This document shows, in pieces, positions 9,271 to 64,000 of a stretch of DNA of 64,000 nucleotides. Numbering within the stretch: the stretch's first letter is position 1; the number at the start of each line of letters is the position of its first letter. Source of the DNA: Mobula hypostoma. Lineage: Eukaryota. The stretch lies in the NCBI RefSeq assembly GCF_963921235.1, contig NC_086108.1, forward strand, positions 26,474,001 to 26,538,000, given 5' to 3'. The notes beneath the pieces are model-generated. The model saw only the letters and a list, made by a program, of their open reading frames with translations. It made no database searches and was not told the origin of the DNA. A program made the position numbers and the translations under genes.

Positions 9271-9900
9271 TTCAAAGTTCAAAGTAAATTAATTATCAAA
9301 GCAACACTTTCAGTACGCTGGATGAACTCAGCAGGTCGGGCAACATCAGTCAGAAACGATGAGTCGACGTTTTGGGCCGGAACGCTTTGTTCGTTTGATC
9401 TTTTACAGCATCTGCAGACTGTTTTGTATTTAAAATTAATTATCAAAGTATGTATGTTACCTTACACTAACTTGAGATTCATTTTATTGCAGGCATTTAT
9501 AGGATAAAAAGGAAATAGAATAGAATTTCATGAAAAACTATATATAAACAGGCAAAGAATAACTAACAATTAATAAGCAAAAGAAGACGAACTGTGTAAA
9601 TAAAAAAATAATACTGAGAACAAGAGTTATAAAGAGTCCTTGAACATAAGTCTGTATGTTTGAGTAGTGGTGATTGAAGTTATCCAAGCCTGTTCAGTAG
9701 CCTGATGACTGTAGGGTAATAACTCTTCTAGAACCTGATAGTATGGAACCTCAGACTTCGGTATCTCCTGCCCGGTGGTAGTAGTGTGAAGAGGGCATGG
9801 TCTAGATGGTGGGGCTCTTTGATGATGGTTGTTGCTTTCTTGTGACAGTTAAATAAATTCTGGGGAGGGCTTTGGCTATGACAGGCTGGTCTGCATCTAC
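9271..9900 (-). mobile_element. Rex1-type LINE 3' fragment interrupted by a Penelope-tail mini-element (9302-9432)
   Basis: TTCAAAG tail and Rex1 3' UTR. The insert is bounded by the 16-bp duplication AAATTAATTATCAAAG (9286-9301 / 9433-9448). Confidence 0.75.
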
Positions 9901-18644: not shown

Positions 18645-20129
18645 TGGGCCTGACAGACATTTTCAACATCTCCCTTAGTCAAGCCATTGTTCCCGGATGC
18701 TTCAAAACCTCCACAATCATCCCTGTAGCAATGAAATCAGCGGTAGCCTGTCTGAATGATTACCATCCCGTTGCCCTGACCCCCATAGTGATGAAATGTT
18801 TTGAACAGCTTGTCAAGCCTCATATCACAGCCAGCCTCCCCTCATCGCTGGGTCCTCTACAGTTTGCTTATTGTCCAAATCGCTCTACGGAGGATGCAAT
18901 ATCCACCACACTGCACACAGTTCTCTCTCACTTGGACAACAAAGACACTTATGCCAAAATCCTGTACATTGATTTCAGTTCAGAGTTCAATACCATCATC
19001 CTGCAGAAACTAGTGGAGAAACTGTTGCTGCTTAGCCTTAGCACTGCCATGTGTCGCTGGATTCTGGATTTCTTGACAGAGAGACCACAGTCAGTCCGTG
19101 TTGGAGGGAACATCTCTGATTCCATCACACTGAGCACTGGATCCCCACAAGGCTGTGTGCTTAGCCCATTGCTGTTTACACTGCTAACATATGACTGTGC
19201 GGCCAGATTCAAGGAGAACCTGATCATTAAATTTGCTGATGATACCACAGTGGTGGGACTCATCAGCAAAAATGATGAAACAATGTACAGGGAGGAGGTC
19301 AAACACCTAGAGAGCTGGTACAGTGATAACAACTTGATGCTTAATGTCACCAAAACCAAGGAGATGATCGTTGATTTCAGACGGTCTCAGCCTGAGCAAC
19401 ACCCCTCAGTATCAGTGGAGAGAGTGGAAAACATCAAGTTCCTTGGGGTGCAGATCTCAGACAATCTCACCTGGTCCAGGAACACAACTGGGATTGTGAA
19501 ATGGGCCCAGCAGAGATTGCACTTTCTGAGGAAGCTTAAACAAGCATCACTCCCCAGTGACATCTTAACTACATTCTACAGAGGCGTGGTTGAGAGTGTG
19601 CTGACCTTCTGCATCACAACCTGGTACTCCAGCTGCAGTGCTGTTGACAAAAAAGCCTTGCAGAGGGTGGTTAGGGGAGCAGAGAAGGTTATTGGGGTCT
19701 CCCTACCTTCTGTCCAAGAACTCTTTCAGAGTCGATGCCTCCAAAAGACACGGTACATCATTAAAGAGCCCTCACACCCTCTCCATGAACTGTTTGTTCT
19801 TCTGCCATCAGGCAAACGTTACAGGAGCATCAAAACTAAAACCACAAGGCTACTAAACAGCTTCCTCCCACAGGCAGTCAGACTGCTAAATAGCTGCTCC
19901 ACCTGACTCTGCTTTGGACACTTTTAACTTGTACTGGACACTTATAACTTGATTTTAACTGACATGTGGCTGTTGTGTTTTACTATTTATTGTTATGTTT
20001 ATTATTTAGTGTTGCATTTGTTATGTTATGATTGCACTGCTCCTGGGAAACGTTGTCTCATTCTGCCCTGCAGAGCTGAATGTACGGTTAGAATGTCAAT
20101 AATGTTTTTTGAATCTTTGAATCTTGAAT
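18645..20129 (+). mobile_element. Young 5'-truncated Rex1/Babar LINE with an open RT frame (ORF 18593..19906)
   Basis: About 420 uninterrupted codons: [57 protein letters not shown]. (TTGAATC)n tail at 20109-20129. Confidence 0.92.
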
Positions 20130-20313
20130 GAATCTGTACTCAATGGAGTTCAGAAATATGTGTAAGTATCTCAATGAAACTTAGCAGATACTGAAAGGCC
20201 TGTACAGAGTGGCATGGAACGGATGTTTTCATTTGTAAGAGAGTCTATGATATGAGGTCACAGCACTATCATAAAAGGATGAGAAGTGGAATTTTTTCAG
20301 CAGAGAATGGTGA

Positions 20314-23300: not shown

Positions 23301-23972
23301 GGTTGAGTCAGTGGTGAAGAAGGCGCATGTAATGTTGGCATTCATTTCTAGAGGAATAGAGTATAAGAGCAGGGATGTGATGTTGAGGCTCTATAAGGCA
23401 CTGATGAGACCTCACTTGGAGTACTGTGGGCAGTTTTGGTCTCCTTATTTAAGAAAGGATGTGCTGACATTGGAGAGGGTACAGAGAAGATTCACTGGAA
23501 CGATTCCGCGAATGAAAGGGTTAATATATGAGGAACGTTTGTCCGCTCTTGGACTGTATTCCTTGGAGTTTAGAAGAATGAGGGGGGACCTCATAGAAAC
23601 ATTTCGAATGTTGAAAGGCATGGACAAAGTGGATGTGGCAAAGTTGTTTCCCATGATGGGGGAGTCTAGTACGAGAGGGCATGACTTAAGGATTGAAGGG
23701 CGCCCACTGAGATGCGAAGAAATTTTTTTAGCCAGAGGGTGGTGAAACAATGGAATTTTTTGCCACAGGCGGCAGTGGAGGCCAAGTCATTGGGTGTATT
23801 TAAGGCAGAGATTGATAGGTATCTGAGTAGCCAGGGCATCAAAGGTTATGTTGAGAAGGCGGGGGAGTGGTACTAAATGGGAGAATGGATCAGTTCGTGA
23901 TAAAATGGCGGAGCAGACTCAATGGGCCGAATGGCCGACTTCTGCTCCTTTGTCTTATGGTCTAATGGCCTT
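20314..23972 (+). mobile_element. Near full-length CR1 LINE (ORF1 SGNH esterase; ORF2 AP endonuclease + RT), with stops and frameshifts, nested in an older CR1 3' fragment
   Basis: ORF1: VVMGDSIVRG, LPGARVRDV, VHVGTND, DRLHLN (after a frameshift; stop 20902-20904). ORF2: VLYLNAPSIRN, IVAITETWL, GGSDHN, KSPGPDGMHPRVLKE, YRPVSLTS, YLDFQKAF, FADD, LEYCGQFWSP. TCTTATGG tail. The host CR1 resumes after 23972. Confidence 0.95.
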
Positions 23973-36545: not shown

Positions 36546-37441
36546 TAGAAACCATAGAAACCATAGAAAAACTACAGTACAGAAATAGGCCTTTTGGCCC
36601 CTCTTGACTGTGCCGAACCATTTTCTGCCTCGTCCCACTGGCCTGCACATGGACCATATCCCTGCATACACCTCCCATCCATGTATCTATCCAATTTATT
36701 CTTAAATGTTAAAAAAGAACCCGCATTTACCATCTCGTCTGGCAGCTCATTCCATACTCCCACCACTCTCTGTGTGAAGAAGACCCCCTAATGTTCCCTT
36801 TAAACTTTTCCCCCTTCACCCTTAACCCATGTCCTCTGGTTTTTTTCTCCCCTTGCCTCAGTGGAAAAAGCCTGCTTGCATTCACTCTATCTATACCCAT
36901 CATAATTTTATATACCTCTAACAAACCTCCCCTCATTCTTCTATGCTCCAGGAAATAAAGTCCTAACCTATTCAACCTTTCTCTATAACTGAGTTTCTCA
37001 AGTCCCGGCACATCCTTGTAAACCTTCTCTGCACTCTTTCAACCTTATTTATATCCTTCCTGTAATTTGGTGACCAAAACTGAACACAATACTCCAGATT
37101 CGGCCTCACCAATGCCTTATACAACCTCATCATAACATTCCAGCTTTTATACTCAATACTTCGATTAATAAAGGCCAATGTACCAAAAGCTCTCTTTATG
37201 ACCCTATCTACCTGTGACACCACTTTTAGGGAATTTTGTATCTGTATTCCCAGATCCCTCTGTTCTACTGCACTCCTCAGTGCCTTACCATTAACCCTGT
37301 ATGTTCTACCTTGGTTTGTCCTTCCAACGTGCAATACCTCACACTTGTCTATATTAAACTCCATCTGCCATTTTTCAGCCCATTTTTCCAGCTGGTCCAA
37401 GTCCCTCTGCAGGCTCTGAAAACCTTCCACACTGTCTACTT
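36546..37441 (-). mobile_element. Young 5'-truncated CR1 LINE
   Basis: ORFs 36972..37430 (LQRDLDQLEKWAEKWQMEFN..LEYCVQFWSP) and 36727..37011 (TRGHGLRV); (TCTATGGTT)n tail at 36546-36568. Confidence 0.92.
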
Positions 37442-37453
37442 TCTCACATTGAC

Positions 37454-37627
37454 AAACAAAAGAAAATCTGCAGATGCTGGAAATGCAAACAGCACACTCA
37501 CTGGAAAAAAGTACTCAGCTTTTTCTCTCCAGTCCTGCCGAAGGGTTTTGGCCCAAAACGTCGACTGTGCCTTTTTCCATAGATGCCGCCTGGCCTGCTG
37601 AGTTCCTACAGCATTTTGTGTGTGTTG
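37454..37627. mobile_element. Older Penelope-tail mini-element (inverted tail piece + degenerate hammerhead tail)
   Basis: AGTCCTGCCGAAGGGTTTTGGCCCAAAACGTCGACT at 37531-37566; TSD TCTCACA(T/A)TGAC at 37442-37453 / 37628-37639. Confidence 0.8.
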
Positions 37628-39009
37628 TCTCACAATGACCTCAGAGACTGAAATCATGGAGTTGTCAGGGGCTGTGGGAGTTCATGAAGGTGCTGCCATA
37701 GTGAGCATAAAAGGCACTGAGCTCATCTGGGAGCATAATCTTATTTCCATGTTGTGTGGTTTTGCTTTGTAGAAGGTGATATAATTCAACCTTGCCACAG
37801 CCTTTGACAATTTCTCTATGATTCAAATTTAGTTCAGAATTGCCACTTTCCAAATAAAATTACCATCTGAAGGTCATACCTGGACCTCTTGTACTTTTGC
37901 AGATCACCAGTCCTAAGTTCCACTCATCCAGCTCTTCTGATTGGGGTGGACCAAATGATTTTGTGGGGACATACTTGTCCATGTGTGAATTACAAATTAC
38001 AAATGAGGCATTTCCCTTTGATACAGCAATTTCCCTCCAATATAGGAAGGTTGTAACTCTAAGGACCGTTAGATGATTGGTATGTAATATGAATTGATCT
38101 CCAATTTGTTGATTATGCATTTCTATCCAGCATTTCCATAACAAAGCTTAAGATTCAAAGCCACGTGGAATATTATGGAGGATCAAATACCCAAACGGTC
38201 TACCTGTAATTTATTAGTCAGGTTACAGTTGGGGTGAGGGGTGGGGGGTGGAACTGAGTGATTCAGACCATAATCATTATCATTTGCAATGTTTTTTCAC
38301 AGGACCACTTTCCAATTTAAGAAAGGAATCTAAGAAATAAATTGCAAATTTTATCTTTCATCTTCTCTACATGATGAAATCCATTAAATATTGCATGAAA
38401 ATATCTTTGATAATTACTTTGAATTCCCTGTTTTCCATTGCCTAGCAATCTGACCATGTCTATTGGAATCCATGTTGAATTGAAAACCAGTGCCTTGGTA
38501 TCGATCATACCTGTGTTTCCCTGTGGTGCTAAAATGAGCGTTGACATCACTCTGCAGGGAATGCTGTTTTCTATTTCTCACACTTCCAGCACAGACCCCT
38601 CCCAATTCACTTCTAATTATAGTTGTTATTTGTTTTCTATTTCAGAGCCGTCAACCCCATTTCAAGCTCATCCTTCTTTTATATTGACATTGCCAGCTCC
38701 ATTCTCCTCTACAAACATTTTCTTGTCTGTTATAAAGGTTTCCATCTCTATACAGAATTAAAGTGACGTTCTTCTCCTTCAACGAGCAACTCCATTCTCA
38801 TCTTTCTTATTTGTAGGCAGACTCATGCTCTTCTCTTTGAGACCTTATCAGCTTCAATCTTATTGTAGATTGCAGATTTAATACAACTGTAGATTTATAA
38901 ATTCCATAACGCCACACAAAAAATAAAAATTACCTGCTAACACTGAAGCTGCAGAACCATTCTGATCTCAAACGTATTGTGTGCTCTGTTTTATCATATG
39001 ATTAAAATC

Positions 39010-40449: not shown

Positions 40450-41240
40450 GCATAAGGATGCAAAAGAAAATTGGAGCAGGAGTATGCCATAATGCTCCTC
40501 AAGCCTGCTTTGCTATTAATCTGATCAGCCCTAGGTCTCAACTCCCCCTCTACGGCAGCTCCACATAGTCCTCAATTTCCCTATCTTTCATAAAATGTAT
40601 CTACCTCCACTTTAAATTTTTAAATACCCCCAGTGATACACCTTCCACAATCCTTCAAGGCAGGGAATTTGAGAGACTCACCATCCTCTGTGAGATTCTT
40701 TCAAACAATCAGTTTTGAATGACTATTCCATGCACTTTAAACTCCCCCTGTCTTGGAAATATACTGACCTCTACCCTATTATGCCTCTTTTACCATCTTA
40801 TATATTTCACTAAGACATCCCTCAATTTTTTAAAATTCCAATGAATACACACCTAACTTTTTCATCCAAACAACAGGAATTCTGCAGATCCTGGAAATTC
40901 AAGCAACACACATCAAAGTTGCTGGTGAACGCAGCAGGCCAGGCAGCATCTCTAGGAAGAGGTGCAGTCGACGTTTCAGGCCGAGACCCTTCGTCAGGGT
41001 CTCGGCCTGAAACGTCGACTGCACCGCTTCCTACAGATGCTGCCTGGCCTGCTGCGTTCACCAGCAACTTTGATGTGTGTAACTTTTTCATCCACTTGGG
41101 ATACAGGAACCTTTGCCAATCTGGAATTAGCCTCCTGAATCTTTCCCTGACCTGCTCCCATGTGCAGAGTTATGTCTGATCTGCCCAGCATACAATATAT
41201 TGCTACTCCTTGGTCATATTGTGTAAGGAAAGTACATCTC
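40450..41240 (-). mobile_element. Old CR1 3' fragment hosting the palindromic Penelope mini-element
   Basis: GGAGCAGGAGTATGCCAT...CTCAAGCCTGCT CR1 tail; sequence is continuous across the insert. Confidence 0.65.
40869..41079. mobile_element. Palindromic Penelope-tail mini-element (85-bp arms, 5-nt loop)
   Basis: 40906-40990 is the reverse complement of 40996-41080 (83/85); TSD TAACTTTTTCATCCA at 40854-40868 / 41080-41094. Confidence 0.9.
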
Positions 41241-41582: not shown

Positions 41583-42193
41583 GTAAAGTACACCAATTCT
41601 GATTTCAGAGCATTCGTAATGTTGCAGTTATGAATGAACAGCTGAGTGTGTTGTCTTGTCATCTTTATAGTGAATGCTTTTTGGGGTGGGTGCATTCCAT
41701 TTTGTGCATAATACTTTTGGATATTGTTTTCCTCTTAACTCCCTGACTCATATGGGCCAGGTGAGGAGAAAAGATATGATCGTATTCTAGATGTTGGTAC
41801 CAAGACCTCAGTCCTCAGCTGATTTAGTTGAGAACTCCAGCACTGACTGCCTTTGACAGGAATCAGAGTTGTAAAGGATTTTTATAGATGTCAAATGTAA
41901 CCCAAAACCCATACAATTCAGGGAACTCTTAAACCCCTTACCATCACTCTCAGCCTTAAATACACAAAACGACTTGGCCTCCAGAGCTTTCAGTGGCAAC
42001 AAGTTCCATTGATTCACCAGCTGAACAAATTCCTCCTCATTTCAATTTTAAAGGAATATCCTTTTATTCTGAGGCGCAGCCCTTGGTACCTAGACGTTCT
42101 TACAAATGGAAACATCCTCTCTATGCCAATTTTATTGAGGCCTTTCAGTTTCCATTAGATTTTAGTTTCAAATTAAAGTCAAATGATAATCTC

Positions 42194-43464
42194 TCTGACT
42201 CTCACAGCTATCTGGACTATTCCTCTTCTCACCCTGTCTCTTGCAAAAACGCCATCCCCTTCTCGCAATTCCTCCGTCTCCGCCGCATCTGCTCTCAGGA
42301 TGAGGCTTTTCATTCTAGGATGAGGGAGATGTCTTCCTTTTTTAAAGAAAGGGGCTTCCCTTCCTCCACTATCAACTCTGCTCTTAAACGCATCTCCCCC
42401 ATTTCACGTACATCTGCTCTCACTCCATCCTCCCACCACCCCACTAGGAATAGGGTTCCCCTGGTCCTCACCTACCACCCCACCAGCCTCTGGGTCCAAC
42501 ATATTATTCTCCGTAACTTCCGCCACCTCCAACGGGATCCCACCACTAAGCACATCTTTCCCTCCCCCCCTCTCTCTGCATTCCGCAGGGATCGCTCCCT
42601 ACAGAACTCCCTTGTCCATTCGTCCCCCCCATCCCTCCCCACTGATCTCCCTCCTGGCACTTATCCGTGTAAGCAGAACAAGTGCTACACATGCCCTTAC
42701 ACTTCCTCCCTTACCACCATTCAGGGCCCCAAACAGTCCTTCCAGGTGAGGCATCACTTCACCTGTGAGTCGACTGGGGTGATATACTGCGTCCGGTACT
42801 CCCGATGTGGCCTTTTATATATTGGCGAGACCCGACGCAGACTGGGAGACGGCTTTGCTGAACATCTACGCTCTGTCCGCCAGAGAAAGCAGGATCTCCC
42901 AGTGGCCACACATTTTAATTCCACATCCCATTCCCATTCTGACATGTCTATCCACGGCCTCCTCTACTGTAAAGATGAAGCCACACTCAGGTTGGAGGAA
43001 CAACACCTTACATTCCATCTGGGTAGCCCCCAACCTGATGGCATGAACATCGACTTCTCTAACTTCCGCTAAGGCCCCACCTCCCCCTCGTACCCCATCT
43101 GTTACTCATTTTTATGCACACATTCTTTCTCTCACTCTCCTTTTTCTCCCTCTGTCCCTCTGAGTATACCTCTTGCCCATCCTCTGGGTCAACCCCCCCC
43201 CCCGTCTTTCTTCCCGGACCTCCTGTCCCATGATCCTCTCGTATCCCCTTTTGCCTATCACCTGTCCAGCTCTCGGCTCTATCCCTCCCCCTCCTGTCTT
43301 CTCCTATCATTTTGGATCTCCCCCTCCCCCTCCAACTTTCAAATCCCTTACTCACTCTTCCTTCAGTTAGTCCTGACGAAGGGTCTCGGCCTGAAACGTC
43401 GACTGCACCTCTTCCTACAGATGCTGCTTGGCCTGCTGCGTTCACCAGCAACTTTGATGTATGT
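42194..43464 (+). mobile_element. Young 5'-truncated Penelope-like element (RT thumb + GIY-YIG endonuclease, frame open to 43072)
   Basis: DSHSYLDYSSSHP..SQFLRLRRICS..CxxxxCxxC..VIYC..LLYIGET..AEH..VATHFN; TSD TGATAATCTC at 42184-42193 / 43465-43474. Confidence 0.95.
43369..43404 (+). ncRNA. Minimal type I hammerhead ribozyme (intact), in the intron between the two BRINP exons
   Basis: AGTC CTGACGA A GGGTCTCGGCCT GAAA CGTC^GACT; predicted cleavage after 43400. Confidence 0.8.
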
Positions 43465-44009
43465 TGATAATCTCAAGTGTAAGCTCTCTTAAACACTCTT
43501 TTCCTCACAGCTGCATTAGCTTCCAAGATTATGTAGAACTTTTGTAACCATACTTAGAGTGAAGTGTCCTGTTTCCTGGAAGCTCTGGTTAGCACCAATT
43601 TATTTATTATGAAAGTGGTCAAATCGACTGAAATTATAGTAACTTCAAAAAGCTTAATTATTTAATCAAAGACATCATTAGACTGGAAAGAATGCAAAGA
43701 GGATTAACAAGGACTGAAGGTCTTGAGATTTCGGCAGAGGTTGGGCAGGCTTGGAATTATTGTTGGAACATGGGAGATTTCTCTGAGAAAAGGAATTAAA
43801 AAATAGAGGACATAGGTTTAAAATGAAGGATGAAAGAATTGGTATTGTTGAGGCAATTACAATAGCAGCATTTAAAAGCCATGTGGAAAAGTGCATCAAC
43901 AGGAAGGTTTTGCAGGGATGTCAACATGAATGAATTGGGCTGAAGGGCTTGTTTCCATGCTATATTGCTTAATAGCTATGACGCTTTAATCAACATGCAT
44001 TTGCATCTT

Positions 44010-48669: not shown

Positions 48670-49529
48670 TGTCACAATCTATTCTTTGTAATATGTATAA
48701 ATGATCTGGATGGAACTGTAGGTAGAGCGATTAACAAGTTTGCAGAAGACACAAAACTTGTGGTGCTGTGGATGGCCACGAAGGTTATTATGGCAGAGAT
48801 AAATCAGCTACAAAATTATGTGAGAAATGGCTGATTACTGTGAGGTGAAGCATTTTGGATGTCAAATGCAAGGGGAAAATATACAGTAAATGCAGCACCA
48901 CTGGGTGAATTGACCTATGGATATATCTTGGGAAGCAAATCCTTAACTTTCTAAAAGGGCAACACAAACGGATAGGGTGATAAAGAAGGCATACAGCCTA
49001 CTTGCATTTATTGTTCAAGGCATTAAGAAATTTAGGAAGCAATGTTTTTATTTATTGGGATGCAGTGCTGAATAAGCCTTTCTTGCCCCTCCAGTCATGC
49101 TGTCCAAATAATACCATAGCCTAATCAAGGGACTACTTACAATGACCAAGTAACCTATCAACCGGTACATCTTTAGACTGTGGGAAGAAAATGGAGCACC
49201 TGGAGGAAACCCATGCAGTCACGGGGAGAATGTACAGACTCCTTACAGACAATGGCAGGAAGCTGTATAAAACTTTGTTTAGGCCACATTTGGAATATGA
49301 TTGCACACTATAATAATATTGAAGTGGCTTTGGTAGGGATGCAGATAAGGATCACCAAGATGTTTTCACTGGGTTGTTTTCATGCAGCATCAGAAACTGC
49401 AGGTCAAACTGAAGGAAGTGTTTCAATTTATGAGAGGCAGGGTTAGAATAGATTGTGAGAACTTCTCTCCCACGTGGAAATGTTAAATACTTGAGGGCAT
49501 AAGTTTAAAGTGAGAGAGTGCAAGTTTAA
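48670..49529 (+). mobile_element. Old CR1 RT/3' fragment (continues at 51124-51240), with a SINE at about 49040-49260
   Basis: TTCTTTGTAATATGTATAAATGATCTGGAT..AAGTTTGCAGAAGACACAAAA (FAEDTK), and GAGGGCATAAGTTTAAAGTGAGA split by Penelope copy 2. Confidence 0.7.
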
Positions 49530-51109
49530 GTTCACCCGTATGGGTCCTAGCTATGCCTGCCACCCGTATGGGTCCGAGCTATGCCTGCCTTTTTGTTGGG
49601 TTTGTGGAACAATCTATGTTCCGTGCCTATTCTGGTATCTGTCCCCCACTTTTCCTTCGCTACATCGACGACTGCATTGGCGCTGCTTCCTGCACGCATG
49701 CAGAACTCGTTGACTTTATTAACTTTGCCTCCAACTTTTACCTTGCCCTCAAGTTTACCTGGTCCATTTCCGACACCTCCCTCCCCTCACTAGATCTTTC
49801 TGTCTCTGTCTCTGGAGACAGTTTATCCACTGATGTCTACTATAAGCCTACTGACTCTCACAGCTATCTGGACTATTCCTCTTCTCACCCTGTCTCTTGC
49901 AAAAACGTCATCCCCTTCTCGCAATTCCTCCGTCTCCGCCGCATCTGCTCTCAGGATGAGGCTTTTCATTCTAGGACGAGGGAGATGTCTTCCTTTTTTA
50001 AAGAAAGGGGCTTCCCTTCCTCCACTATCAACTCTGCTCTTAAACGCATCTCCCCCATTTCACGTACATCTGCTCTCACTCCATCCTCCCAGCACTCCAC
50101 TAGGAATAGGGTTCCCCTGGTCCTCACCTACCACCCCACCAGCCTCCGGGTCCAACATATTATTCTCCGTAACTTCTGCCACCTCCAACGGGATCCCACC
50201 ACTAAGCACATCTTTCCCTCCCCCCCCTCTCTGCATTCCGCAGGGATCGCTCCCTACACAACTCCCTTATCCATTCGTCGCCCCCATCCCTCCCCACTGA
50301 TCTCCCTCCTGGCATTTATCCGTGTAAGTGGAACAAGTGCTACACATGCCCTTACACTTCCTCCCTTACCACCATTCAGGGCCCCAAACAGTCCTTCCAG
50401 GTGAGGCAACACTTCACCTGTGAGTCGGCTGGGTGATATACTGCGTCCGGTGCTCCCGATGTGGCCTTTTATATATTGGCGAGACCCGACGCAGACTGGG
50501 AGACGGCTTTGCTGAACATCTACGCTCTGTCCGCCAGAGAAAGCAGGATCTCCCAGTGGCCACATATTTTAATTCCACATCCCATTCCCATTCTGACATG
50601 TCTATCCACGGCCTCCTCTACTGTAAAGATGAAGCCACACTCAGGTTGGAGGAACAACACCTTATATTCCGTCTGGGTAGCCTCCAACCTGATGGCATGA
50701 ACATCGACTTCTCTAACTTCCGCTAAGGCCCCACCTCCCCCTCGTACCCCATTTTTTTATGCACACTTTCTTTCTCTCACTCTCCTTTTTCTCCCTCTGT
50801 CCCTCTGAATATACCTCTTGCCCATCCTCTGGGTCCCCCTCCCACTTGTCTTTCTTCCCGGACCTCCTGTCCCATGATCCTCTCGTATCCCCTTTTGCCT
50901 ATCACCTGTCCAGCTCTCGGCTCTATCCCTCCCCCTCCTGTCTTCTCCTATCATTTTGGATCTCCCCCTCCCCCTTTAACTTTCAAATCCCTTACTCACT
51001 CTTCCTTCAGTTAGTCCTGACGAAGGGTCTCGGCCTGAAACGTCAACTGAACCTCTTCCTACAGATGCTGCTTGGCCTGCTGCGTTCACCAGCAACTTTG
51101 ATGTGTGTT
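49530..51109 (+). mobile_element. Young 5'-truncated Penelope-like element, copy 2 (RT with YIDD + GIY-YIG; two frameshifts)
   Basis: ORFs 49553..50404 (MGPSYA..LFLRYIDDCIG) and 50433..50726. Near-identical to 42194-43464. TSD GAGTGCAAGTTTAA at 49516-49529 / 51110-51123. 28-bp tandem duplication at the 5' junction. Confidence 0.95.
51013..51048 (+). ncRNA. Hammerhead ribozyme copy with one helix I mismatch
   Basis: AGTCCTGACGAAGGGTCTCGGCCTGAAACGTC^AACT. Confidence 0.65.
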
Positions 51110-51772
51110 GAGTGCAAGTTTAAAGGAGATTTGCAAGGCAGTTACTTACTTTACACAGATAATGGTATACGTCTGTAACATGCTGCCAGGGACCTAGTGG
51201 AATCAGATATGACAGCATGTTTTAGAGGTACTTAAACAATCAGGTGATCCATATCAGATGGATTGTGAGAGTGCAGCTGATTGATCGTGCAGTGATTCAG
51301 TTGAGCATCCTATGCATGGAGGACTTCTCTTTTCTCACAGGCTTTCGAATGAGCATGTTTTCATCTTGGTGGGTTCAGTTCGTAGGTCCTGCACTGTAAA
51401 TTGCCCAGCGTGTACAGCTACTAGTGTAACTCAGTAAAAATATTTAATCGCATTACTCTGTTGTTCTTGCTCCACATGCCCACAACAGCCAGGAACAGAG
51501 GGATATAGACCATTTGCAAACAGATCAGATCAGTTAGATTGGAATCATGTTGGGCTGAAAGACCCTATTATTGCGCTGTACTGTTCTATGTTCTATATTT
51601 AGAGATAGGCATTTATTTCTGGTGATGATTTCGCTATGCTTTCCTCCAAGCTGGTGGGCTGTCATATCTAGCAAGGGTTTGTATGTGCCTTTACTGAGGC
51701 TGCTGGGAGACCAAGCAGTAGAATATCAAGTTTTTTATCTCAATGGCTGGGGAGATCTGGGCTGTTATTCAA

Positions 51773-54079: not shown

Positions 54080-56001
54080 TCTTACTTACCCCTGGAACAG
54101 GACCCCACCGAAAAACATCAAACCATTGTCTCCCGTACCATCACTGCCCTTATCAACTCCAGAGACCTTCCATCCTCAGCCACTAAACTCATAATTCCCA
54201 CATCCCGTACTGCTCGGTTTTACCTCCTCCCCAAGATCCACAAGCCTGACTGTCCCAGCAGACCCATAGTTTCTGCCTGCTCCTGTCCCACCGAACTTGT
54301 ATCTGCCTACCTGGACTCCATTTTGTCACTCATAGTTCAGTCTCTCCCCACCTACATCCGGGATACATCCCATGCCCTCCACCTCTTCAATAACTTCCAG
54401 TTCCCCGGTCCCAGCCGCTACATTTTCACTATGGATGTCCAATCCCTATACACCTCCATTCCCCATGAAGAAGGCCTCAAAGCCCTCTACTACTTTCTGG
54501 ATAATAGACCTCACCAGTTCCCCACCACCACTACCCTCCTCCGGTTGGCGGAACTGGTTCTCACACTCAATAACTTCTCTTTTGGCTTTTCCCACTTCCT
54601 TCAGACCAATGGTGTAGCTATGGGAACTCGCATGGGCCCTAGCTATGCCCGCCTCTTCGCTGGTTATGTGGAACAATCTGTGCTCCAAACCTATTCTGGT
54701 ACTGCTCCCCAACTTTTCCTTTGGTACATTGATGACTACATTGCTGCTGCTTCCTGCACCCATGCTGAGCTCGTCAATTTCATCGACTTTACTTCTAACT
54801 TCCACCCAGCCCTCAAATTCACTTGGTCTGTCTCGGACACTTCTCTCCCCTTTCTCGATCTCTCGGTCTCCATCTCTGGAGACAGACTGTCCACTGACAT
54901 CTCCTGCAAGCCCACTGACTCTCATAACTACCTCAACTATACCTCTTCCCACCTGCCACATGCAAAAATGCCATTCCCTATTCCCAATTCCTCCGTCTCC
55001 GCCGCATCTGCTCCGAGGATGAGGTTTTCCATTCCAGGACATCTCAAATGTCCTCCTTCTTTAAGAATCGTGGTTTCCCTTCTGCTGTCATTAATGATGC
55101 CCTCACCCACATCTCCTCCATTTCCTGCACTTCGGCTCTCACCCCATCCTCCCGCCACCACAACAGGGATAGAGTTCCCCTTGTCCTCACCTACCACCCC
55201 ACTAGCATCCGGATCCAACACATTATCCTTCGCAACTTCCGCCACCTTCAACAGGACCCCACCACTAAGCACATCTTTCCTTCTCCACCCCCTCCGCCTT
55301 CCGCAGGGATCGGTCCCTCCGCGACTCCCTGGTCCACACGTCCCTCCCCACGGATCACCCACCTGGCACTTATCCCTGTAAGTGCAAGTGCTACACCTGT
55401 CCCTACACCTCCTCTCTTGCCACCATTCAGGGCCCCAAACAGAACTTCCAAGTGAGGCAACACTTCACTTGTGAGTCTGTTGGGGTCATCTATTGCATCC
55501 GGTGCTCCCAGTGTGGCCTCCTCTACATTGGTGAAACCCAACGCAGATTGGGGGACCGCTTCGTCGAGCACCTCTGCTCCGTCCGCCAAAACAGACAGGA
55601 TCTCCCGGTAGCCACCCACTTCAACTCTACTTCCCATTCCCATTCAGATATGTCCATACATGGCCTATCCCTATGTAACTCTGTCCCCTCCCCCAGCTGC
55701 CTACCTCCTCCCTCTTGGTTCCACCTCCTTCTACTACCCATTGTGTTTTCCCCTATTCTTTCTTCACCTTTCCTGCCTATCACCTCCCTGCCTCCCTTCC
55801 CCCACCCCTTTATCTTTCCCCTTACTGGTTTTTCTCCTGAAACCTACCAGCCTTCTCCTTCCCACCCTCCCCCCACCTTCTTTATAGGGCCTCTGCCCCT
55901 TCCCCCTGCAGTCCTGACAAAGGGTTCCGGCCCAAAACCTCGACAGATCTTTTCCACGGATGCTGCCCGACCTGCTGAGCTCCTCCAGCGTGTTGTGAGT
56001 G
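54080..56001 (+). mobile_element. Penelope-like element copy 3 (different subfamily; longest RT; frameshifts; EN C-terminus deleted)
   Basis: FYLLPKIHKP..RPIVSAC..TMDVQSLYTSIP..QTNGVAMGTRMGPSYA..WYIDD; VIYCIRC..LLYIGETQRRLGDRFVEH. TSD TTGCAAGATCTCC at 54067-54079 / 56002-56014. Decayed hammerhead at 55910-55945. Confidence 0.95.
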
Positions 56002-56379
56002 TTGCAAGATCTCCCTGCATCTTTGGCTGATAACATTGTTCAATGTCACTGCAGCACAGAAGCATGACGATTATATATGTTGCCTTGGAGCTCTAGGGCT
56101 CCAGTGGCAGGGCAGGGTTAATCCTCTCTTTCGATGCTGTCTATACAGAGTATGCACATTCCCCACCCATATTCTGAATGTTTGCAGATTGGTAGGATCG
56201 ATCACCCCTGCTGTGTAAGTGAGTGGTAGAATCTAGATAGAGGGGTGGGGGGAGGGAGGTTGAAGGAATGTTGGGAAATGCAACTATTATTGTGTTAGTA
56301 TAAAATGGGTGACTAATCCTCGGTGTAGACTCAATGGATTGAAAAATTTGACACAATTTCAAAGAAGGCATGCTGGTGA

Positions 56380-56845
56380 CTATACTTCATTAGGGGTTTG
56401 AAGAGGTTTGGTATATTACCAAAGACTAGCAATTTTCAACAAATGTATGTGGGAAATATTGACTGGTTGCATCAGAGTATTGAAAGAGGCTCCAGAGTGG
56501 TGTAGGCTGGGTCAGCTCCTTCGTGGGTACAACCCTCCCCACTGTCGAGGACATCTTCAAGATCCTGTGCTCAAGAACATGTCTTGCATCATTAAAGACA
56601 TCTATCATCCGTGACATACCATTTATTATCATCAGCGAAGAGGTAAAGTAGCTTGAAGGTCCACATTCAGTGTTTTAGGAGCATCTTCTTTCCTTGTGCC
56701 ATCAGGTTTCTGAATGGTCCCTGAACACTTATTTATTTAGTGCAACTTATAGCAATTATTTTTATATCTAGCACTGTACTGCTGTCACAAAACAGCAAAT
56801 TTCTTAACATATGTCAATGATAGTTAACCTGAGACTAATTCTCAT
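56380..56845 (+). mobile_element. Old Rex1-type 3' fragment
   Basis: ORF 56408..56614 contains ILTGCI..CIIKDIYHP. Confidence 0.65.
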
Positions 56846-57349
56846 TCTATGACTATATAACATCCGCTTTGATGTGGCGTTCCACTCTGTTGGTGTTGCT
56901 TAATACTGTTTAAGTATTAAGTCCCTGTACTCAAACTGTTTGCACTCACAACAGAGGGATAATCTTTCTGAATCTCTCTACCCATCCTGCTATCTTCAGG
57001 GATCTGAACACGGAAGAAGTCAAAACAAGTGTGCATATTTCTATGTCAGGACATTCCAGAGCACTTTGCAACTTTGTAATGACAACTTTTTAAATAAAAC
57101 CAAGAGAGCTCTCCTGCTCCACTTCAAAATGGGAGCTTGAGTGGGCAGGTCTGTCTTGATGCTAACAAGCCATGGTGGTCTTTATCCATGCCTTGAATAC
57201 ATACGCCACACAATTCCTGCTGAGGCATTCATCTTTTGAAGCCCTGCTAGCCCAATTGAGGTTGTGGTCTCCTGTGGTACCCATCCTTGCAAATGGGCAA
57301 ACTACGAATAGCGATTAGCCCTCAAGTGGTAGATCTTGGGGACAATTCT

Positions 57350-58300
57350 GCAGAGTACCGTTTCACTCATAAAAACTTATGGTGTGGGAGGTGAGCTATT
57401 GTGTGAAGAGAAGATTAACTGGCTAACCATAAACGAAAACAATTAGGTCTTTTTTTCTGGTTGACAAGACATAATAAGTGGTGTGCAATTGTGATGATGC
57501 TAGGGCCTTAACTTTTTACAATGTATAATGACCTGGATAAAGGGAGAAAGAGTATGATTACTGATGACACAAAGATGGCCAGAAAAATAAGTTACGCTGT
57601 GACATAAGGTAGCCATGGTCTGATATAGATAGGTTAAGTGAGTGAGCAAAAATCTAGCAAATGAGATACGATGTAGCAGAATATGAAATTGCCCATTTTG
57701 GCAAGACAAAATAGAATATTATCTAAATAGTAAGGGATTGTAGAGCTCTGGGAATAAGTTCTGATTTACAAAAGGTTTGTATGTAGGCACAGCAAGGAAT
57801 TATGAAAGATAATTGTTTATTACTAGGTGAATTACATAAAGCTAGGAAGATTATACATTGGTTATATAAATCAATGACGAGATTACGTCTGGTGTAATAT
57901 GCACAATTTTAATTGTCCTATTAAAGGTAGAATATTAATGTGGGTAAAGCAGTTCAGATAAGATTTACTAGACTAATATTGGGATGTCTTATGAAGAAAG
58001 CTCTTATAAGATAGTCTTGTAGCACCAGAATTTAGAAGATTAGGATGGTGATTTGCTTGCAATATTTAACATTCTGAGGGGTCTTGCAGAATGGTTGCAG
58101 AAATAGGTTATTTCCTCATGGGAGAATCGAGAAGTAGGGTGTCATTGTTTAAAAAAATTGAGTCGCCCATTGAAGGCAATGAGGCAAAATCCTCTCTTTC
58201 AAAAGGTTGTGAGAGTTTGGAACTCTCATACTTGAAAAGCAGTGACAACAATGTCTTTGAATATTTTTAAGGCTGAGTTGATGTCAAAGCAAGAGGGTGA
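57350..58300 (+). mobile_element. Old CR1 RT/3' fragment
   Basis: TTTACAATGTATAATGACCTGGAT..CTGATGACACAAAGAT..GTTCAGATAAGATTTACTAGACTAAT..GAATATTTTTAAGGCTGAG. Confidence 0.65.
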
Positions 58301-58309
58301 AAGATTGAT

Positions 58310-59462
58310 ATCTTGACTCTACCTCTTCCCACTCTATCTCTTGTAAAAATGGTATTCCCTTTTTTAGTTCCTTCACCTTCACTGCATCTGTTCACAGGAT
58401 GTGGCTTTCCATTCCAGGTCATCAGGGATGACCTCCTTCTTCAAAGAATGGGCTTTCCCTCCCTCCACTATTAATGCTGCCCTCACCTGCATCTCCTCCA
58501 TTTCTTTAAGAACCTCGCTGATCCCATCTTCCTGCTACCTTAGCAGTGATAGAGTTCCTCTTGTCCTTACCTACTACTCCATGAGCTTCTACATCCAACT
58601 CGTCACCCTCCGCAACTTCTGCCATCTCCAAAAGGATCCTACCACTAAACATATCTTCACCTCCCCTCTCCTGCTTTCTGCAGGGTTCATTCACTCTGGG
58701 AATCCCTCATCTATTCATCCTTCCTGGCACTTAACCCTACAGCCCGCCTAAATGCTACACCTGCTCATACACCTCTGCACTCACCTCCATCCAGGGCTGT
58801 AAATAGCCCTTCCGGGTGATGCAACACTTCACCTGCTGGGGTTGTCTATCATGTCTGGTGCTCTTGTTGCGCCTCCTCATTGTAAATTGGGGGGGGGTCG
58901 CTTTGTTGATTACCTCTGCATCATCCACCAAATGCAGAACTTCCTGGTGGCTAACATTTTAATTCCAATTTTCATTCCTGTTATGACATGTCAGTGCAAA
59001 GATGAGGCCATCCTCAGGGTGGAAGAGCAACACCTTATACTCTCTCTGGGTAGTCTCCATCTTGATGGCATGAAAATAAATTTCTCCTTCCAATGAAAAA
59101 AAAAAATCCCTCCCCTTCCCCTCTTCCTCTATTCCCCACTCTTCTCACCTGCCTATCACTTCCCCCCGGGTCCCCTCCTCCTTCATTTTCTTCTGTGGTC
59201 TAATCTCCTTTCCTATCAGATTCTTTCTTCTCCAGCCCTTTACCTGTCTCATCCATCCAGCTTCATCTATCACCTTCCACTCGCTCTAACTCTCCCTTTT
59301 TATTCTGGCATTTCCTCCTTCCTTTTTGGTCCTGAAGAAGGGTCTCAGCCTGAAACATCGACGGTTTATTGACTTCCATAGATGTTGGTGACCTGCTGAG
59401 TTCCTCCAGCATTTTGTATATGTTGCTTTGGATTTACAGCATCTGTAGAACTTCTCATGTTC
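58310..59462 (+). mobile_element. Old Penelope-like element copy 4 (decayed)
   Basis: ORFs 58401..58751 and 58842..59096 are homologous to copies 1-3; hammerhead relic GGTCCTGAAGAAGGGTCTCAGCCTGAAACATCGACG at 59328-59363. Confidence 0.85.
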
Positions 59463-60260
59463 GTATTTCAGCCTAATGGTACAACTGGAAGTTAGTCCTT
59501 CCAACAGAGTTGCATGAGCCAATGCTACCACCTATACATTGAAGGTACTATCAGAGAGGAAGAGATACTAAAGCTTTCTTTTGCAACTTGTGCATTCGCT
59601 TTTATCTTTATGCTACTTCATCCATGAGCTCAGTGGATGCAATGATTAACAACTTTCACAGAACTTAATGGCTACCATTGGTTTATGTTACTAGAAAGGC
59701 TCCTAAAGTTACTCCTAATGTGGAAATCTCATGGTTAATATCATTAATAAAAATTGTAAGGGAAAAGGAATATACTATTTGAGCTTAACTAAGTTCACAA
59801 GAGGAAAAGCGTACAAAATTATCTGTAATAGTTTTGAATGAAAATGGATATGGTCTATAAAAATATATGCACTAACAATTGGATTACTGAGATGAATAAG
59901 AATTTTGTCTCATATTACTCAACTATCGTTCCTTTGAAGTTAATTAGTGGAAAATCAACTCCCTTGTTGACTTACTTGCTTTGTGCTTGTGTTCTGTATT
60001 TACCCGCCTACAGAGAATCATAATGGAGATCAAATCCTGAACAATGCAGATTGATGTTTTAATCCTCCATGTTGTGGCACTGATTTATGATCCACTGTGA
60101 TGCTGGCATCCCCTGCTGTGAAGCAGGTAGAATCCAGCATGGCTGAGCAATGCAGTATATGTGATGCAACTGGTCTACTGTGGAATAATCGCATGATGCA
60201 ATATCCACTCTAAAGAAAGCTGTTTACTACCTTATTAATTCTAATATGCATTCATTCTTT

Positions 60261-60980
60261 ATAAGACCATAAGACACTGGAGCAGAATTAGGCCATTTGA
60301 CATATCCAGCCGGCTTCACTATTCCATCATGGCTGATTTATTATCCCTCTCAATCCATTATTCTGCCTTCTCCCTGTAACCTTTGATGCCAGAATTAATC
60401 AAGAACCTATCAACCTTTGCCTTAAATACACCCACTGACGTAGCCTGCACAGCCACCTGTGGCAATGAATTCCACTGATTCACCACTTCTGGCTAAATAA
60501 ACTTTTCCTCATCTCTGTTCTAAATGGGCATGCCTCAATTCTGAGGCCAAGCCCTCTGGTCCTAGACTCCCCTACTGTAGGAAACATCCTCTCCACATCC
60601 ACTCTATCTAGGCTTTTCAATATTCAATAGCTTTCCATGAGATCAAACCCACCCCCATTCTTCTAAACTCCAGTGAGTTCAGACCCAGAACCATCAAACA
60701 CTCCTAATATACTAACCTGTTCATTCCTGGGATCATTTTTTTGAATGTCCTCTGGACTCTTTCCAGTGCCAGCACAACTTTTCTCAGATGAGTGACCCAA
60801 AACTGCTCACAATACTCTAAGTATGGTCTGAAAAATGCTTTATGAAGACTCAGCATTCCATCCTTGCTTTTGTATTCTAGTCCTCTCAAAATGAATGCTA
60901 ATATTGTATTTCCCTTTCTCACCACCAATTCAACCTGCAAGTTAACCTTTAGTGAATCCCACACCAGGACTCCCAGGTCT
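60261..60980 (-). mobile_element. CR1 LINE 3' fragment
   Basis: ORF 60704..60964 LKVNLQVE..LEYCEQFW; (TCTTATGG)n tail. Confidence 0.88.
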
Positions 60981-61407
60981 CTTTATGAACTCAAGTTACC
61001 CACGATAAAGGGATCAATTTATGGGATCAATGTTATGCTCTTTAAGTTCTCTTCAACTAGCTAGCAGAAAACAGATTGTCATTACCATGTTAAGCAGACC
61101 AAGGTTATTCTGTGACAGAAATATAAGCTCAGAAGTTGTTGCAGGTGATTATTGTGGATGGATCTGTAAGAGCTCAACTAAAATAGTAGACAAAAGAATG
61201 TTAACACTCAGTGTTAAATATTAATGGGCTAACATGACCAATAGTAATTTGTAGGAATTTAAAGCAACCAGGTTCTACAGAGGCAGAGCCAACTGTGGGA
61301 ACAATCAGCAAACAACAGGAATTCTGCAGATGCTGGAAATTCAAGCAACACACATCAAAGTTGCTGGTGAACGCAGCAGGCCAAGCAGCATCTATAGGAA
61401 GAGGCGC

Positions 61408-61443
61408 AGTCGACGTTTCAGGCCGAGACCCTTCGTCAGGACT
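61408..61443 (-). ncRNA. Minimal type I hammerhead ribozyme (intact, minus strand)
   Basis: Reverse complement is AGTCCTGACGAAGGGTCTCGGCCTGAAACGTCGACT. Confidence 0.78.
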
Positions 61444-61490
61444 AACCCCTCCTCCAGCTTTCAAATCCCTTACTCACTCTTCCTTCAGTT

Positions 61491-61526
61491 AGTCCTGACG
61501 AAGGGTCTCGGCCTGAAACGTCGACT
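61491..61526 (+). ncRNA. Minimal type I hammerhead ribozyme (intact, plus strand)
   Basis: AGTCCTGACGAAGGGTCTCGGCCTGAAACGTC^GACT; predicted cleavage after 61522. Confidence 0.78.
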
Positions 61527-62774
61527 GCGCCTCTTCCTATAGATGCTGCTTGGCCTGCTGCGTTCACCAGCAACTTTGATGTGTGTTGCAACAATCAGCA
61601 AGTCAGGATCAATAGCGCCTGAAAATGCCCCCTTTTGAAAAATGATTTTTCCCCTTGAATTGCCACTGTGTCTTCTGCATATTGCCAAATGTAATATTAT
61701 ACAGTGGCACAAGGTTCTGAAATGCAAGTTTAGAAAAAAAAATTATTAGCATATTTAAGAGTGGTGATATTTGATTAATGAAACTGATAATGGATTAACA
61801 TTAAGCAGTTAGCATTTCAAGTCAGTGTAAATCTTTATGAAATCACAGTGTAAATTTAAGCTACTGAGATTTACTTAAAATAGCAAAGAGATATTTGCAA
61901 TTTAGATTTGGGTACAGTACCTGATTCCAAAAATAAAAGTTCTCAAAATAATATTTTCAATGTTAGTTTGCTGCTCACTCCTGCATTAGGAAGGTTGTCT
62001 GGGCTCCATACAAAGGAAAGAACAAGTACACAGAGGCAGGTAGAGCATACAGGGACATTTCTCTTCATTCTAGACTCCCCAAAGTGCAGGCATTCAGAAA
62101 TGGTTCCCCTGTCCTCACAGAGATCTCCCTTGTAGCACTGGAAGATGTTACTGGCCCCTGTAAGCAAACAATATGCCGTCCGAGGGTACTGATTTTCACC
62201 ACCCTGTCATGGTTTATCTGACCCTCTCTGATCATACCATCATCCCCTCCGTCATCAATGTAACATCTAGAAGCAACACTTCTCTTTTGCCTCTTTCTGA
62301 GGTTGGCCTTAAAGTGCTGCCTTTCATAAATCATACCTGCTACAACAGGCCAAAGGTCAAAAAGGAGCACCGCAACGTGAGTGATAGAATACAACTTTAA
62401 CAAAAAGTGATGACCTGCAGTGCTGTTCCAACACCAAAAGTAATGCGTGATTTTACCAGGCCCTTTGCATTTTACATGCAAACCAAAACTCCCAATTCAT
62501 TGGTTTTGCATTGCCCCATTACTTTCTATTTTGGGTGGTTGCTAATCAAAATAAGGCAGATAAGTGTCAGCTTCTATTAAGAATGATTTTCTTCATGTTT
62601 CACATTTGAAGTAATAAGCTGACATTGTCTCACTGATCAGCTGAATATTTATTCAGTGCAAACTTAATTAGAAGGACACATACACCAAAACTAATTTCTT
62701 TACTTAGTGACTGTATTTGCTGCCCAGATGAGGGATCTGGCCGAATAGTAAAGACCTGTGCTGATCAGCTTGCA

Positions 62775-64000
62775 GGAGCGAGCACTGATATCCTCAACTT
62801 CTCGCTTTGGCAGTCTGAGGTACCCACCTGCTTCAAGCGGGCTTCAAATATACCAGTGCCTAAGAAGAAAATGGCAATCTGTCTCAGTAACTGGAGTCCA
62901 GTAGCACTGACATCAGCTGTGATGAAGTGCTTTGGGAACATGATGATGAAACATATCAACTCCTGCCTGTGAAGTGACTTGGATCCACTCCAATTTGCCT
63001 ACTGGCATAACAGGTCCACAGCAGATGCCATTTCATTGGCTCTTCACTCAACACTGGAACCTCTGAACAGCAAAGGTGCCTACGTCAGGATGCTCTTCAT
63101 TGACTACAGCTCAGCATTCAACATTATCATTAGTCAAAACTAATAAATAAACTTCAAGACCTTGACGTCAATACCCCCGTGCAATTGGATCCTTGATTTC
63201 CTCATTTGCAAACCTCGGTCAGTTCTTATTGGCAAAAACATCTTCACAATCTCCATCAGTATAGGTGTACCATAAAGCTGTGTGTTTAGCCTCCAGCTCT
63301 ACTTACTTTATACTTATGACTGTGAGGCTAAGTACAGCTTCAATGCTATTTTTCAGTTTGCTGATGACGCCACTGTCATTGGCCTCATCAAAGGTGGTAA
63401 CGAATTAGCTGAAAACCTATCTGAGTGATGCCACAAGATCAACCTCTCACTTGATATCAGTAAGACCAAGGAGTTGATTATTGACTTCAGGAGGAGGAAA
63501 TCTGAGGGCCAGGAGCCAGTCCTCATCAGGGGATGAGCAACTTTAAGTTCCTTGGTGTTACCATTTCAGAGAATCTGTCTTGGGTCCATTATGAAGAAAG
63601 CATGGCAGTGTCTCTACATCCTTAGAAGTTTGTGAAGATTTGGCATGACATCTAAAACTTGTATAGATGTATGGTGGAGAGTATATTGACTGGTTGTATC
63701 AGGGCCTGGTATGGAAACACCAATGTCCTTGAATGGAAAATCCTACAAAAAGTAGTGAATACAATCCAGTCCATTATGGGTAAAACCCTCCCTACCATTG
63801 AACACATCTACATGGAGAACTGTCACAGGAAAGTAGTATCCATCATCAAGAACCCCCACCATCCAGGCTATGCTGTCTTGTTGCTGCTGCCATCAGGAAG
63901 AAGGTAGGGAGCTCAGGACCCACATCACCAGGTTCAGGAACAGTTATTAACCCTCAACCATCAGGCTCCTTGTACCAGAGTAGATAACATCACTCATCTT
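62775..64000 (+). mobile_element. Decayed Rex1/Babar LINE (RT region), running off the window
   Basis: [27 protein letters not shown] 63659..63907 YRCMVESILTGCI..LLPSGRR. Confidence 0.88.

Follow-up and report, generated by a model that had tools for sequence, protein, structure and literature searches.

Head-to-head Penelope-like element 3′ ends with one minimal hammerhead motif per strand in a 278-bp insertion of Mobula hypostoma

Insertions of endonuclease-bearing Penelope-like elements (EN+ PLEs) have a characteristic architecture. According to PMC8557442, an inverted, 5′-truncated partner and a tail of 30–40 bp at one end are typical of PLEs, and the origin of these inverted repeats and tails is called unresolved in that source. 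A rotifer example described in PMC3846280 comprises an inverted copy, a 31-bp tail, and a 9-bp duplication. Biochemical data come from PAc, a Poseidon-clade element: as reported in PMC11167929, the purified PLE protein cuts both strands and extends them, two internal reverse transcription (RT) start sites bound the tail, the protein is a predicted dimer, and ribozyme cleavage is dispensable. Hammerhead ribozymes of the minimal metazoan PLE type were described by Cervera and De la Pena (PMC4209133), who report no cleavage by single motifs and low cleavage by dimers, together with opposite-strand hammerhead pairs lying 100–700 bp apart in Schistosoma. Two further systems yield products with related features. 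In L1 twin priming, as described in PMC12016303, two opposite cDNAs are primed from both target strands within one target-site duplication (TSD) and represent adjacent pieces of one RNA; where these overlap, the median is 12 bp. The non-LTR retrozymes (PMC7229834; bioRxiv 10.64898/2026.07.22.740005) are small, non-coding elements with type I hammerheads and a proposed origin from PLE ends; they are described there as direct tandem repeats with at least two same-strand ribozymes, from which circular RNAs are released.

The locus described here lies in a 64,000-nt stretch of contig NC_086108.1 of Mobula hypostoma, referred to throughout as the window (Table 1). A 278-bp insert at 61312–61589 is flanked by two exact copies of a 12-mer (61300–61311 and 61590–61601) that occurs just twice across the 64-kb window. 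The arms of the insert, 61345–61446 and 61488–61589, are 102 nt each, 100% complementary, and separated by 41 nt, and the hairpin that they form has a calculated energy of −227 kcal/mol (z = −27), with 0 of 100 shuffles folding equally well. The 278-bp insertion, 12-bp TSD, and perfect inverted arms of the initial annotation are thereby confirmed, the arms being complementary at 102 of 102 positions and the TSD exact. Its description of a perfect palindrome applies to the 102-bp arms but not to the insert as a whole, which is asymmetric: 33 nt outside the arms (61312–61344) belong to the left piece only, and the spacer between the arms is 41 nt of extra upstream element sequence carried by the right piece only. 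Both pieces, ~135 nt (left, inverted) and 143 nt (right, direct) in length, are element 3′ ends pointing outwards. Neither a coding frame nor poly(A) was found in 61312–61589.

The ends of the insert coincide with recurrent ends of the family. At the tail end, 136 contigs (at 61308) and 99 contigs (at 61310) of run X2 pass into unrelated flanks, and in run X7 99 contigs depart to unrelated flanks at 61343; the two fixed termini in the contigs, 61308–61310 versus 61343–61344, are thus ~33–35 nt apart. The match of the left end to the 40.9k copy extends out to 61309, and the agreement of the last bases of the left TSD copy with the outer end of the element (Table 1) possibly represents priming microhomology. 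On the opposite side, the 43k, 51k, 28k, and 37k copies and the right-hand 40k copy stop within a few bases of the end point of the right arm. At the center, the true join may lie somewhere in 61446–61451, judging by the bases up to 61450, which deviate from the longer copies; loose contig ends near the junction fall at 61448 and 61451.

Table 1. Features of the insertion and of related copies in the window (positions are those of the window; +, −, strand;., no strand assigned)
Feature	Position	Strand	Remarks
Target-site duplication, left copy, 12 bp	61300..61311	.	Last 2–3 bases also equal the element's outer end
PLE tail, 33 nt past the element's inner 3′ end	61312..61344	−	One side only
Left arm, inverted 5′-truncated PLE 3′ end	61345..61446	−	
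Minimal type I hammerhead motif, mirror copy	61407..61444	−	Pattern scan; predicted cut 61412/61411
Head-to-head junction, 1 nt microhomology	61446..61447	.	
41-nt spacer from the pyrimidine-rich 3′ UTR of this PLE, running on into the right arm	61447..61487	+	
Right arm, direct 5′-truncated copy up to the element's inner 3′ end	61488..61589	+	
Minimal type I hammerhead motif	61490..61527	+	Predicted cut 61522/61523
Target-site duplication, right copy, 12 bp	61590..61601	.	
Head-to-head pair, older subfamily	9286..9448	.	Tail on one side; 16-bp duplication
Direct piece attached to an inverted tail and a few further bases, older subfamily	37442..37639	.	12-bp duplication with one mismatch
Palindromic insertion, same young family	40854..41094	.	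15-bp duplication; tail on inverted arm; junction inside ribozyme; 3-nt microhomology
Longer 5′-truncated copy of the parent PLE	42184..43474	+	End of RT-EN frame, 3′ UTR, hammerhead; 10-bp duplication; no inverted partner
Second long 5′-truncated copy of the parent PLE	49516..51123	+	14-bp duplication; no inverted partner

The sequence of the insert can be traced to longer elements in the same window. Positions 61448–61588 are 96% identical to 43326–43466, the last 141 nt of the 42.2–43.5k copy; for the right arm plus spacer, identity to the 49.5–51.1k copy is 94%. The translation of 41960–43072 contains a CX4CxxC linker, and the long copies also carry a YIGET motif; a CX2–5CxxC linker before the GIY-YIG domain marks the Neptune and Nematis clades, per PMC8557442. 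An older relative, the copy at 54–56k, which is 78% identical to the 43k copy, matches Pfam RVT_1 (E 2e-7) and GIY-YIG (E 8e-4, under the curated cut-off). The two young long copies have no Pfam match; the young copies align at 59% to a protein matched by the RT frame. Among the relatives of this RT frame, the best and four of the first five are ray and shark proteins of 64–76% identity. From the frame motifs, the RVT_1 and GIY-YIG matches, and these cartilaginous-fish relatives, the parent is predicted to be an EN-bearing PLE of cartilaginous fish with a Neptune/Nematis-type linker. The insert thus combines an origin from an element with RT and GIY-YIG domains, an inverted 5′-truncated partner, a one-sided tail of 30–40 bp, and a short TSD, the set of features that identifies an EN+ PLE insertion.

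The family is very abundant. Summed contig depth, which is not a copy number, reaches 1–6 million over the arms versus 7.3 over the flanks, and bounds derived from site 61529 place the number of copies at roughly 5,000 to 170,000. Against Pfam, no host gene was matched in 40 of the 74 frames of at least 45 aa in 56100–64000, and one of the 40 scanned frames gave weak matches to an RT fragment and a lysis-protein model, both at E ~0.05. At the 5′ junction of the 51k copy (49530–49585), an imperfect direct duplication of ~30 nt of element sequence is observed, possibly due to RT slippage or a template re-start. Other retroelement remains in the window are found at 5155–5748, 18587–19906, 20195–23745, and 36972–37430, with Pfam RVT_1 matches at 18587–19906 (plus ALKBH8_N) and 22414–23238. 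The 20.2–23.7k stretch resembles an almost complete LINE of the CR1 type, the first frame of which is esterase-like.

Structural comparison with the described systems places the insert closest to the EN+ PLE insertions of PMC3846280 and PMC8557442, with which it shares direct and inverted 5′-truncated copies arranged head to head and a short TSD. Its one-sided tail measures 33 nt, compared with 31 bp in the rotifer PLE (PMC3846280). The main differences are that the pieces here are so short (135 and 143 nt) that the palindrome alone remains, and that the family is very large and its host a cartilaginous fish. The shared features with PAc (PMC11167929) are two RT starts bounding the tail, cleavage and extension of both strands, and a ribozyme whose cleavage is unneeded; PAc belongs to another clade, however, and its ribozyme overlaps the start of an ORF, whereas the insert is without a coding frame. 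L1 twin priming likewise gives two opposite cDNAs, primed from both target strands, within one TSD (PMC12016303), but the L1 pieces lie next to each other on their RNA and, where they overlap, share a median of 12 bp in that source, as opposed to 102 nt in the insert. In addition, the first L1 piece is primed at poly(A), whereas the insert has two fixed start sites and no poly(A). On account of the 102-nt overlap and the absent poly(A), L1-type twin priming proper was rejected. The initial annotation had offered a twin-priming by-product of Penelope insertion as one of two origins; a by-product primed from both strands fits best, and the proposed route resembles L1 twin priming in its working without being an instance of it, given an overlap of 102 nt versus the L1 median of 12 bp.

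The insert is very likely a one-off product of PLE insertion. It consists of two short PLE 3′ ends placed head to head, probably after both DNA ends of a staggered cut had primed reverse transcription, and a route with two priming events is judged rather probable. The PLE endonuclease would nick the two target strands 12 bp apart. One 3′ end would prime at the outer start site, the tail end, and yield ~135 nt of cDNA before stopping where the hammerhead begins on its 5′ side. The other would start from the inner site, which lies 33 nt upstream, and copy 143 nt. The two cDNA ends would then be joined via 1 nt of microhomology and the gaps filled in. Two properties of the arms bear on this order of events. 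Neither arm contains the other, the left having 33 nt more and the right 41 nt more, which rules out a simple fold-back of target-primed cDNA; and with an overlap of 102 nt, either the same RNA served as template two times or there were two RNA templates. Against this route, the element of PMC11167929 belongs to the Poseidon clade and is not reported to form a head-to-head product, whereas the parent of the insert has the Neptune/Nematis-type linker. Transcriptional read-through from either side would produce the antisense first and leave the ribozyme buried in a 102-bp helix. With one dimer-only ribozyme per strand and its antisense made first, the insertion product is likely a dead end.

The hammerhead motifs of the insert adopt the minimal form. 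In a pattern scan, the core, defined by CUGANGA and GAAA, occurs once on each strand of the insert and six more times in the window, including one chance match. The plus-strand motif is composed of a 5-bp helix I (61490–61494 with 61523–61527), a core at 61495–61501 followed by one extra base, a 4-bp helix II (61503–61514), GAAA at 61515–61518, and a loop-less, palindromic helix III. Helix III comprises four self-complementary bases, and its pairing needs two copies (−3.1 kcal/mol). Similar to the hammerheads of PMC4209133, these motifs lack loop 3 and have palindromic helix III positions, a 5-bp helix I, an extra base before helix II, and a G-C (or G-U closed) helix II; helix II has 4 bp in the insert, as compared with 7–8 bp in the Schistosoma families of that source. 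A search of the 64 kb with Rfam gave no match at the gathering level, the hammerhead being unseen at any threshold tried; five matches appeared at E up to 10, all below the gathering score, and the best of these, a microRNA hairpin model on the palindrome, was rejected as a generic hairpin match. Because isolated 52-nt hammerhead windows fold no better than shuffles (z > −1 in four of five), folding energy provides no evidence for a ribozyme. A hammerhead had been assigned to each strand, and this assignment stands at the level of the core motif, found by pattern once per strand, in a loop-less minimal form that Rfam missed in this sequence.

The location of these motifs within the hairpin is unfavorable for their folding. 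On the two strands, the hammerhead starts at nt 179 and nt 146 of 278, downstream of its own antisense, and forcing the ribozyme helices carries a calculated cost of 72 and 70 kcal/mol, respectively. The earlier suggestion that the long hairpin competes with ribozyme folding is therefore in agreement with calculation, at ~70 kcal/mol. By analogy with the single motifs of PMC4209133, cleavage by one minimal hammerhead per strand is not expected, and the motifs are predicted to be inactive. A template end made by the ribozyme cut was considered and rejected, none of the 30 listed joint ends (see below) lying within 3 nt of the cut site.

Eleven loci of the PLE family are present in the 64-kb window, and four of these are head-to-head pairs, at 9.3k (TSD of 16 bp), 37k (11 of 12 bp), 40.9k (15 bp), and 61k (12 bp). 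In each pair the tail is on one side only, and no two junctions are alike. Among all copies other than that at 61k, exact TSDs of 9–16 bp are found at five and one of 11/12 at one more; with the 55k copy left out, no convincing TSD was seen at the 24k, 28k, and 59k copies. A wider view of the junctions is provided by public contigs from 4 of 24 runs on 61000–61900, which contain 471 joints. The best 15 of the 471 are all distinct, and all begin in the left arm and lead to the right arm or to the spacer just before it; one listed joint, 61441 to 61555, lands deeper in the right arm. Joints of this kind are the form in which other palindromic copies appear on this reference. The sample is biased in that the listed joints are the best supported, older subfamilies are similar to the reference only from ~61491, left pieces extending beyond 61446 never register as skips, and contigs matching the reference's own 61446/61447 junction are omitted from the joints. 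Scans for exact patterns gave 0 loci for the junction in metagenome contigs and 0 for the arm in metagenome and viral contigs; this host is evidently not represented in those collections, which makes the negatives uninformative.

There is a pronounced clustering of the joint ends. Of the 30 listed, 23 fall in an 11-nt window, 61488–61498, which is the 5′ edge of the hammerhead, and with such a hotspot of 5′ ends identical junctions recur without propagation. The depth of the listed DNA joints ranges from 2 to 248 (up to 153 in X2 and up to 248 in X7, with a single copy at 7.3). Since some of these depths lie well above single copy, some other junctions are recurrent or form small propagating sets. 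The junction of 61366 to 61492 in X2 has a summed depth of 153 in five contigs, ~20 times single copy, and is present in X7 and X10; with one end off the hotspot, it is the best candidate for a multiplied junction.

This clustering of the 5′ ends of short copies, at the 5′ edge of helix I, concerns 61470–61497 and the equivalent positions 37515–37535 and 55895–55915. A pyrimidine tract followed by AG, resembling a splice acceptor, is observed at the helix I edge in several subfamilies, and PMC4209133 describes an intron end at the same place in Drosophila virilis Penelope. Splicing of the template would be a possible cause of the 5′ hotspot, but the 3′ UTR showed no canonical donor and the joints carry no constant inserted letters; the idea is kept as a lead. 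Two observations come from the run guessed to be RNA. In X10, a contig of depth 1125 joins 21 nt of inverted tail (61332) to the hammerhead core (61495), a joint with zero depth in the other three runs that may represent an insertion within a highly expressed transcript. In addition, a 162-letter contig of the guessed-RNA run covers the unique left flank at 60996–61157 at a depth of 4.5. Its source may be an intronic RNA or carried-over DNA; a host exon was not found near 60996–61157.

A different origin of the palindrome is self-priming, in which the antisense strand folds back and copies itself, and the endonuclease trims one arm at the inner site before or during integration. Self-priming has been suggested for PLE inverted repeats from palindromes at their junctions (PMC3846280), and resolution by the endonuclease has been put forward as the source of the tail (PMC8557442). 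It would account directly for the identity of the arms at 102 of 102 positions. The clearest case in its favor is the 40.9k palindrome (40869–41079), the junction of which forms a perfect fold-back stem of 3 bp with a 5-nt loop and fits the self-priming model well. At 61k, however, self-priming would need 1 bp of priming across a 41-nt loop. Moreover, the spacer lies on the tail-less arm, where it is unobtainable from tail-primed cDNA, and this holds for three of the four pairs (9.3k, 37k, and 61k). Even at 40.9k, the arms differ at the site equal to 61540, each with an allele found in other copies, a weak hint of two templates. Taken together, self-priming is an unlikely origin for the 61k insert.

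Under priming from both ends of the cut, the preferred reading, a single RNA could have been copied two times or two RNAs could have been copied once each, and arm-to-arm differences bear on this choice. In the 40.9k palindrome, 2 of 85 sites are unlike between the arms. One of these corresponds to 61540, where the left arm agrees with the 28k copy and the right arm with the 43k and 51k copies; as a single case, this split is a weak hint of two different RNA templates. In the 61k insert, both arms have G at 61529, and A is found in six of the eight close copies of the window, namely the other six. In the same-species DNA run, A accounts for 69% of the summed depth at 61529 and for 65% at its mirror position, as compared with 99% in organism B and 96–97% in organism E. 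Non-A depth in the same-species run is 381,000 versus a single-copy depth of 7.3, although reference bias may inflate the non-A share. G at 61529 is a marker of a subfamily that has expanded in this species, from which it follows that the insertion is young, and its youth in turn accounts for the 102/102 identity of the arms; the other close copies show one to six pairwise differences per 85 sites. The variant had been regarded as private to the locus, which is at odds with about one-third of the depth in this species not being A. It had also been read as a sign that both arms were probably copied from one template, but a marker carried by a large subfamily does not distinguish one template from two, and the shared G is thus no proof of a single template.

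The second origin proposed in the initial annotation was a self-propagating, non-autonomous palindromic unit, retrozyme- or MITE-like, mobilized in trans by PLE protein. Sequences of the pLTR can suffice for mobilization in trans (PMC3846280), animal retrozymes are argued to come from PLE ends (bioRxiv 10.64898/2026.07.22.740005), and some junctions recur over contigs and runs, such as 61366 to 61492 at a depth of 153 in X2. Such recurrence is expected in any case, with 23 of the 30 listed ends in one 11-nt window. The junctions speak against the proposal, being distinct in four of four window pairs and in the best 15 of 471 contig joints (copies with the 61446/61447 junction not counted). The insert also has no tandem pair of same-strand ribozymes for monomer release, its ends are not inverted repeats, the tail being outside the arm, and it is hard to see why a daughter made from read-through RNA should stop at the inner start site. 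A MITE-like family consists of many copies with identical internal structure, terminal inverted repeats, and a TSD of fixed length. MITE-like termini were not found here, given the tail beyond the left arm and family TSDs of 9–16 bp. Since its two pieces are inverted and each strand has a single minimal motif, the insert was rejected as a non-LTR retrozyme too, even though it shares with retrozymes its small size, lack of coding sequence, type I hammerhead, and origin from a PLE end. Self-propagation is accordingly improbable. A variant of it, a retro-MITE whose two strands each hold a silenced ribozyme, is no less doubtful: some stumps, perhaps that at 61k, would be transcribed from either side and copy themselves as palindromes. 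It is equally hard to credit that PLE protein binds the start site at each end of such stumps and that reinsertion keeps the junction. Candidates for such units are the junctions at ~20 times single-copy depth (61366 to 61492 in X2).

The two weakest alternatives concern older arms and the assembly itself. Palindromes can be homogenized by gene conversion, and the family is dense (11 loci per 64 kb), but two independent insertions at the same spot, or later gene conversion equalizing two older arms, are highly improbable in view of the one exact 12-bp TSD around both pieces with none inside, both 3′ ends pointing outwards at two known termini, and a geometry seen four times in the window. As for the assembly, contigs of X2, a DNA run carrying this species label, connect the inverted tail with the left flank (61000–61332) and the direct end with the right flank (61568–61900) with 0 differences, at depths of 7.2–7.4 and in opposite orientations as expected. 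These contigs enter the element by 21–22 letters only, relative to a bridge standard of 31 letters, and none of the listed contig pieces from the four runs on 61000–61900 spans the central junction. In organism E, an orthologous contig (61005–61288, 13 differences) ends 11 letters short of the target site, and in organism B the flanks are nearly without cover; the four runs thus revealed no empty site. An artefact from a chimeric fold-back read would explain the unspanned junction and the short reach of the flank contigs, and X2 is possibly the sample behind the window itself; such an artefact is nonetheless most improbable in light of the TSD, the asymmetric tail, the recovery of both opposite-orientation flank joins with 0 differences at single-copy depth, and the same geometry in older, diverged insertions. 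The palindromic structure is very probably real.

In the literature consulted, no paper was found on this PLE family or on such stumps in cartilaginous fish. Each structural feature of the insert is already in print for PLEs, and the locus alone is an ordinary, tidy example of a known PLE insertion product. The wider interest lies in the genome around it, where young head-to-head junctions number at least in the hundreds and both arms bear subfamily markers. Arm-to-arm comparison over many stumps can tell fold-back from double copying of one RNA and from the use of two RNAs by a dimeric enzyme. If located within host transcripts, perfect hairpins of 100 bp would be substrates for RNA editing and small-RNA pathways.
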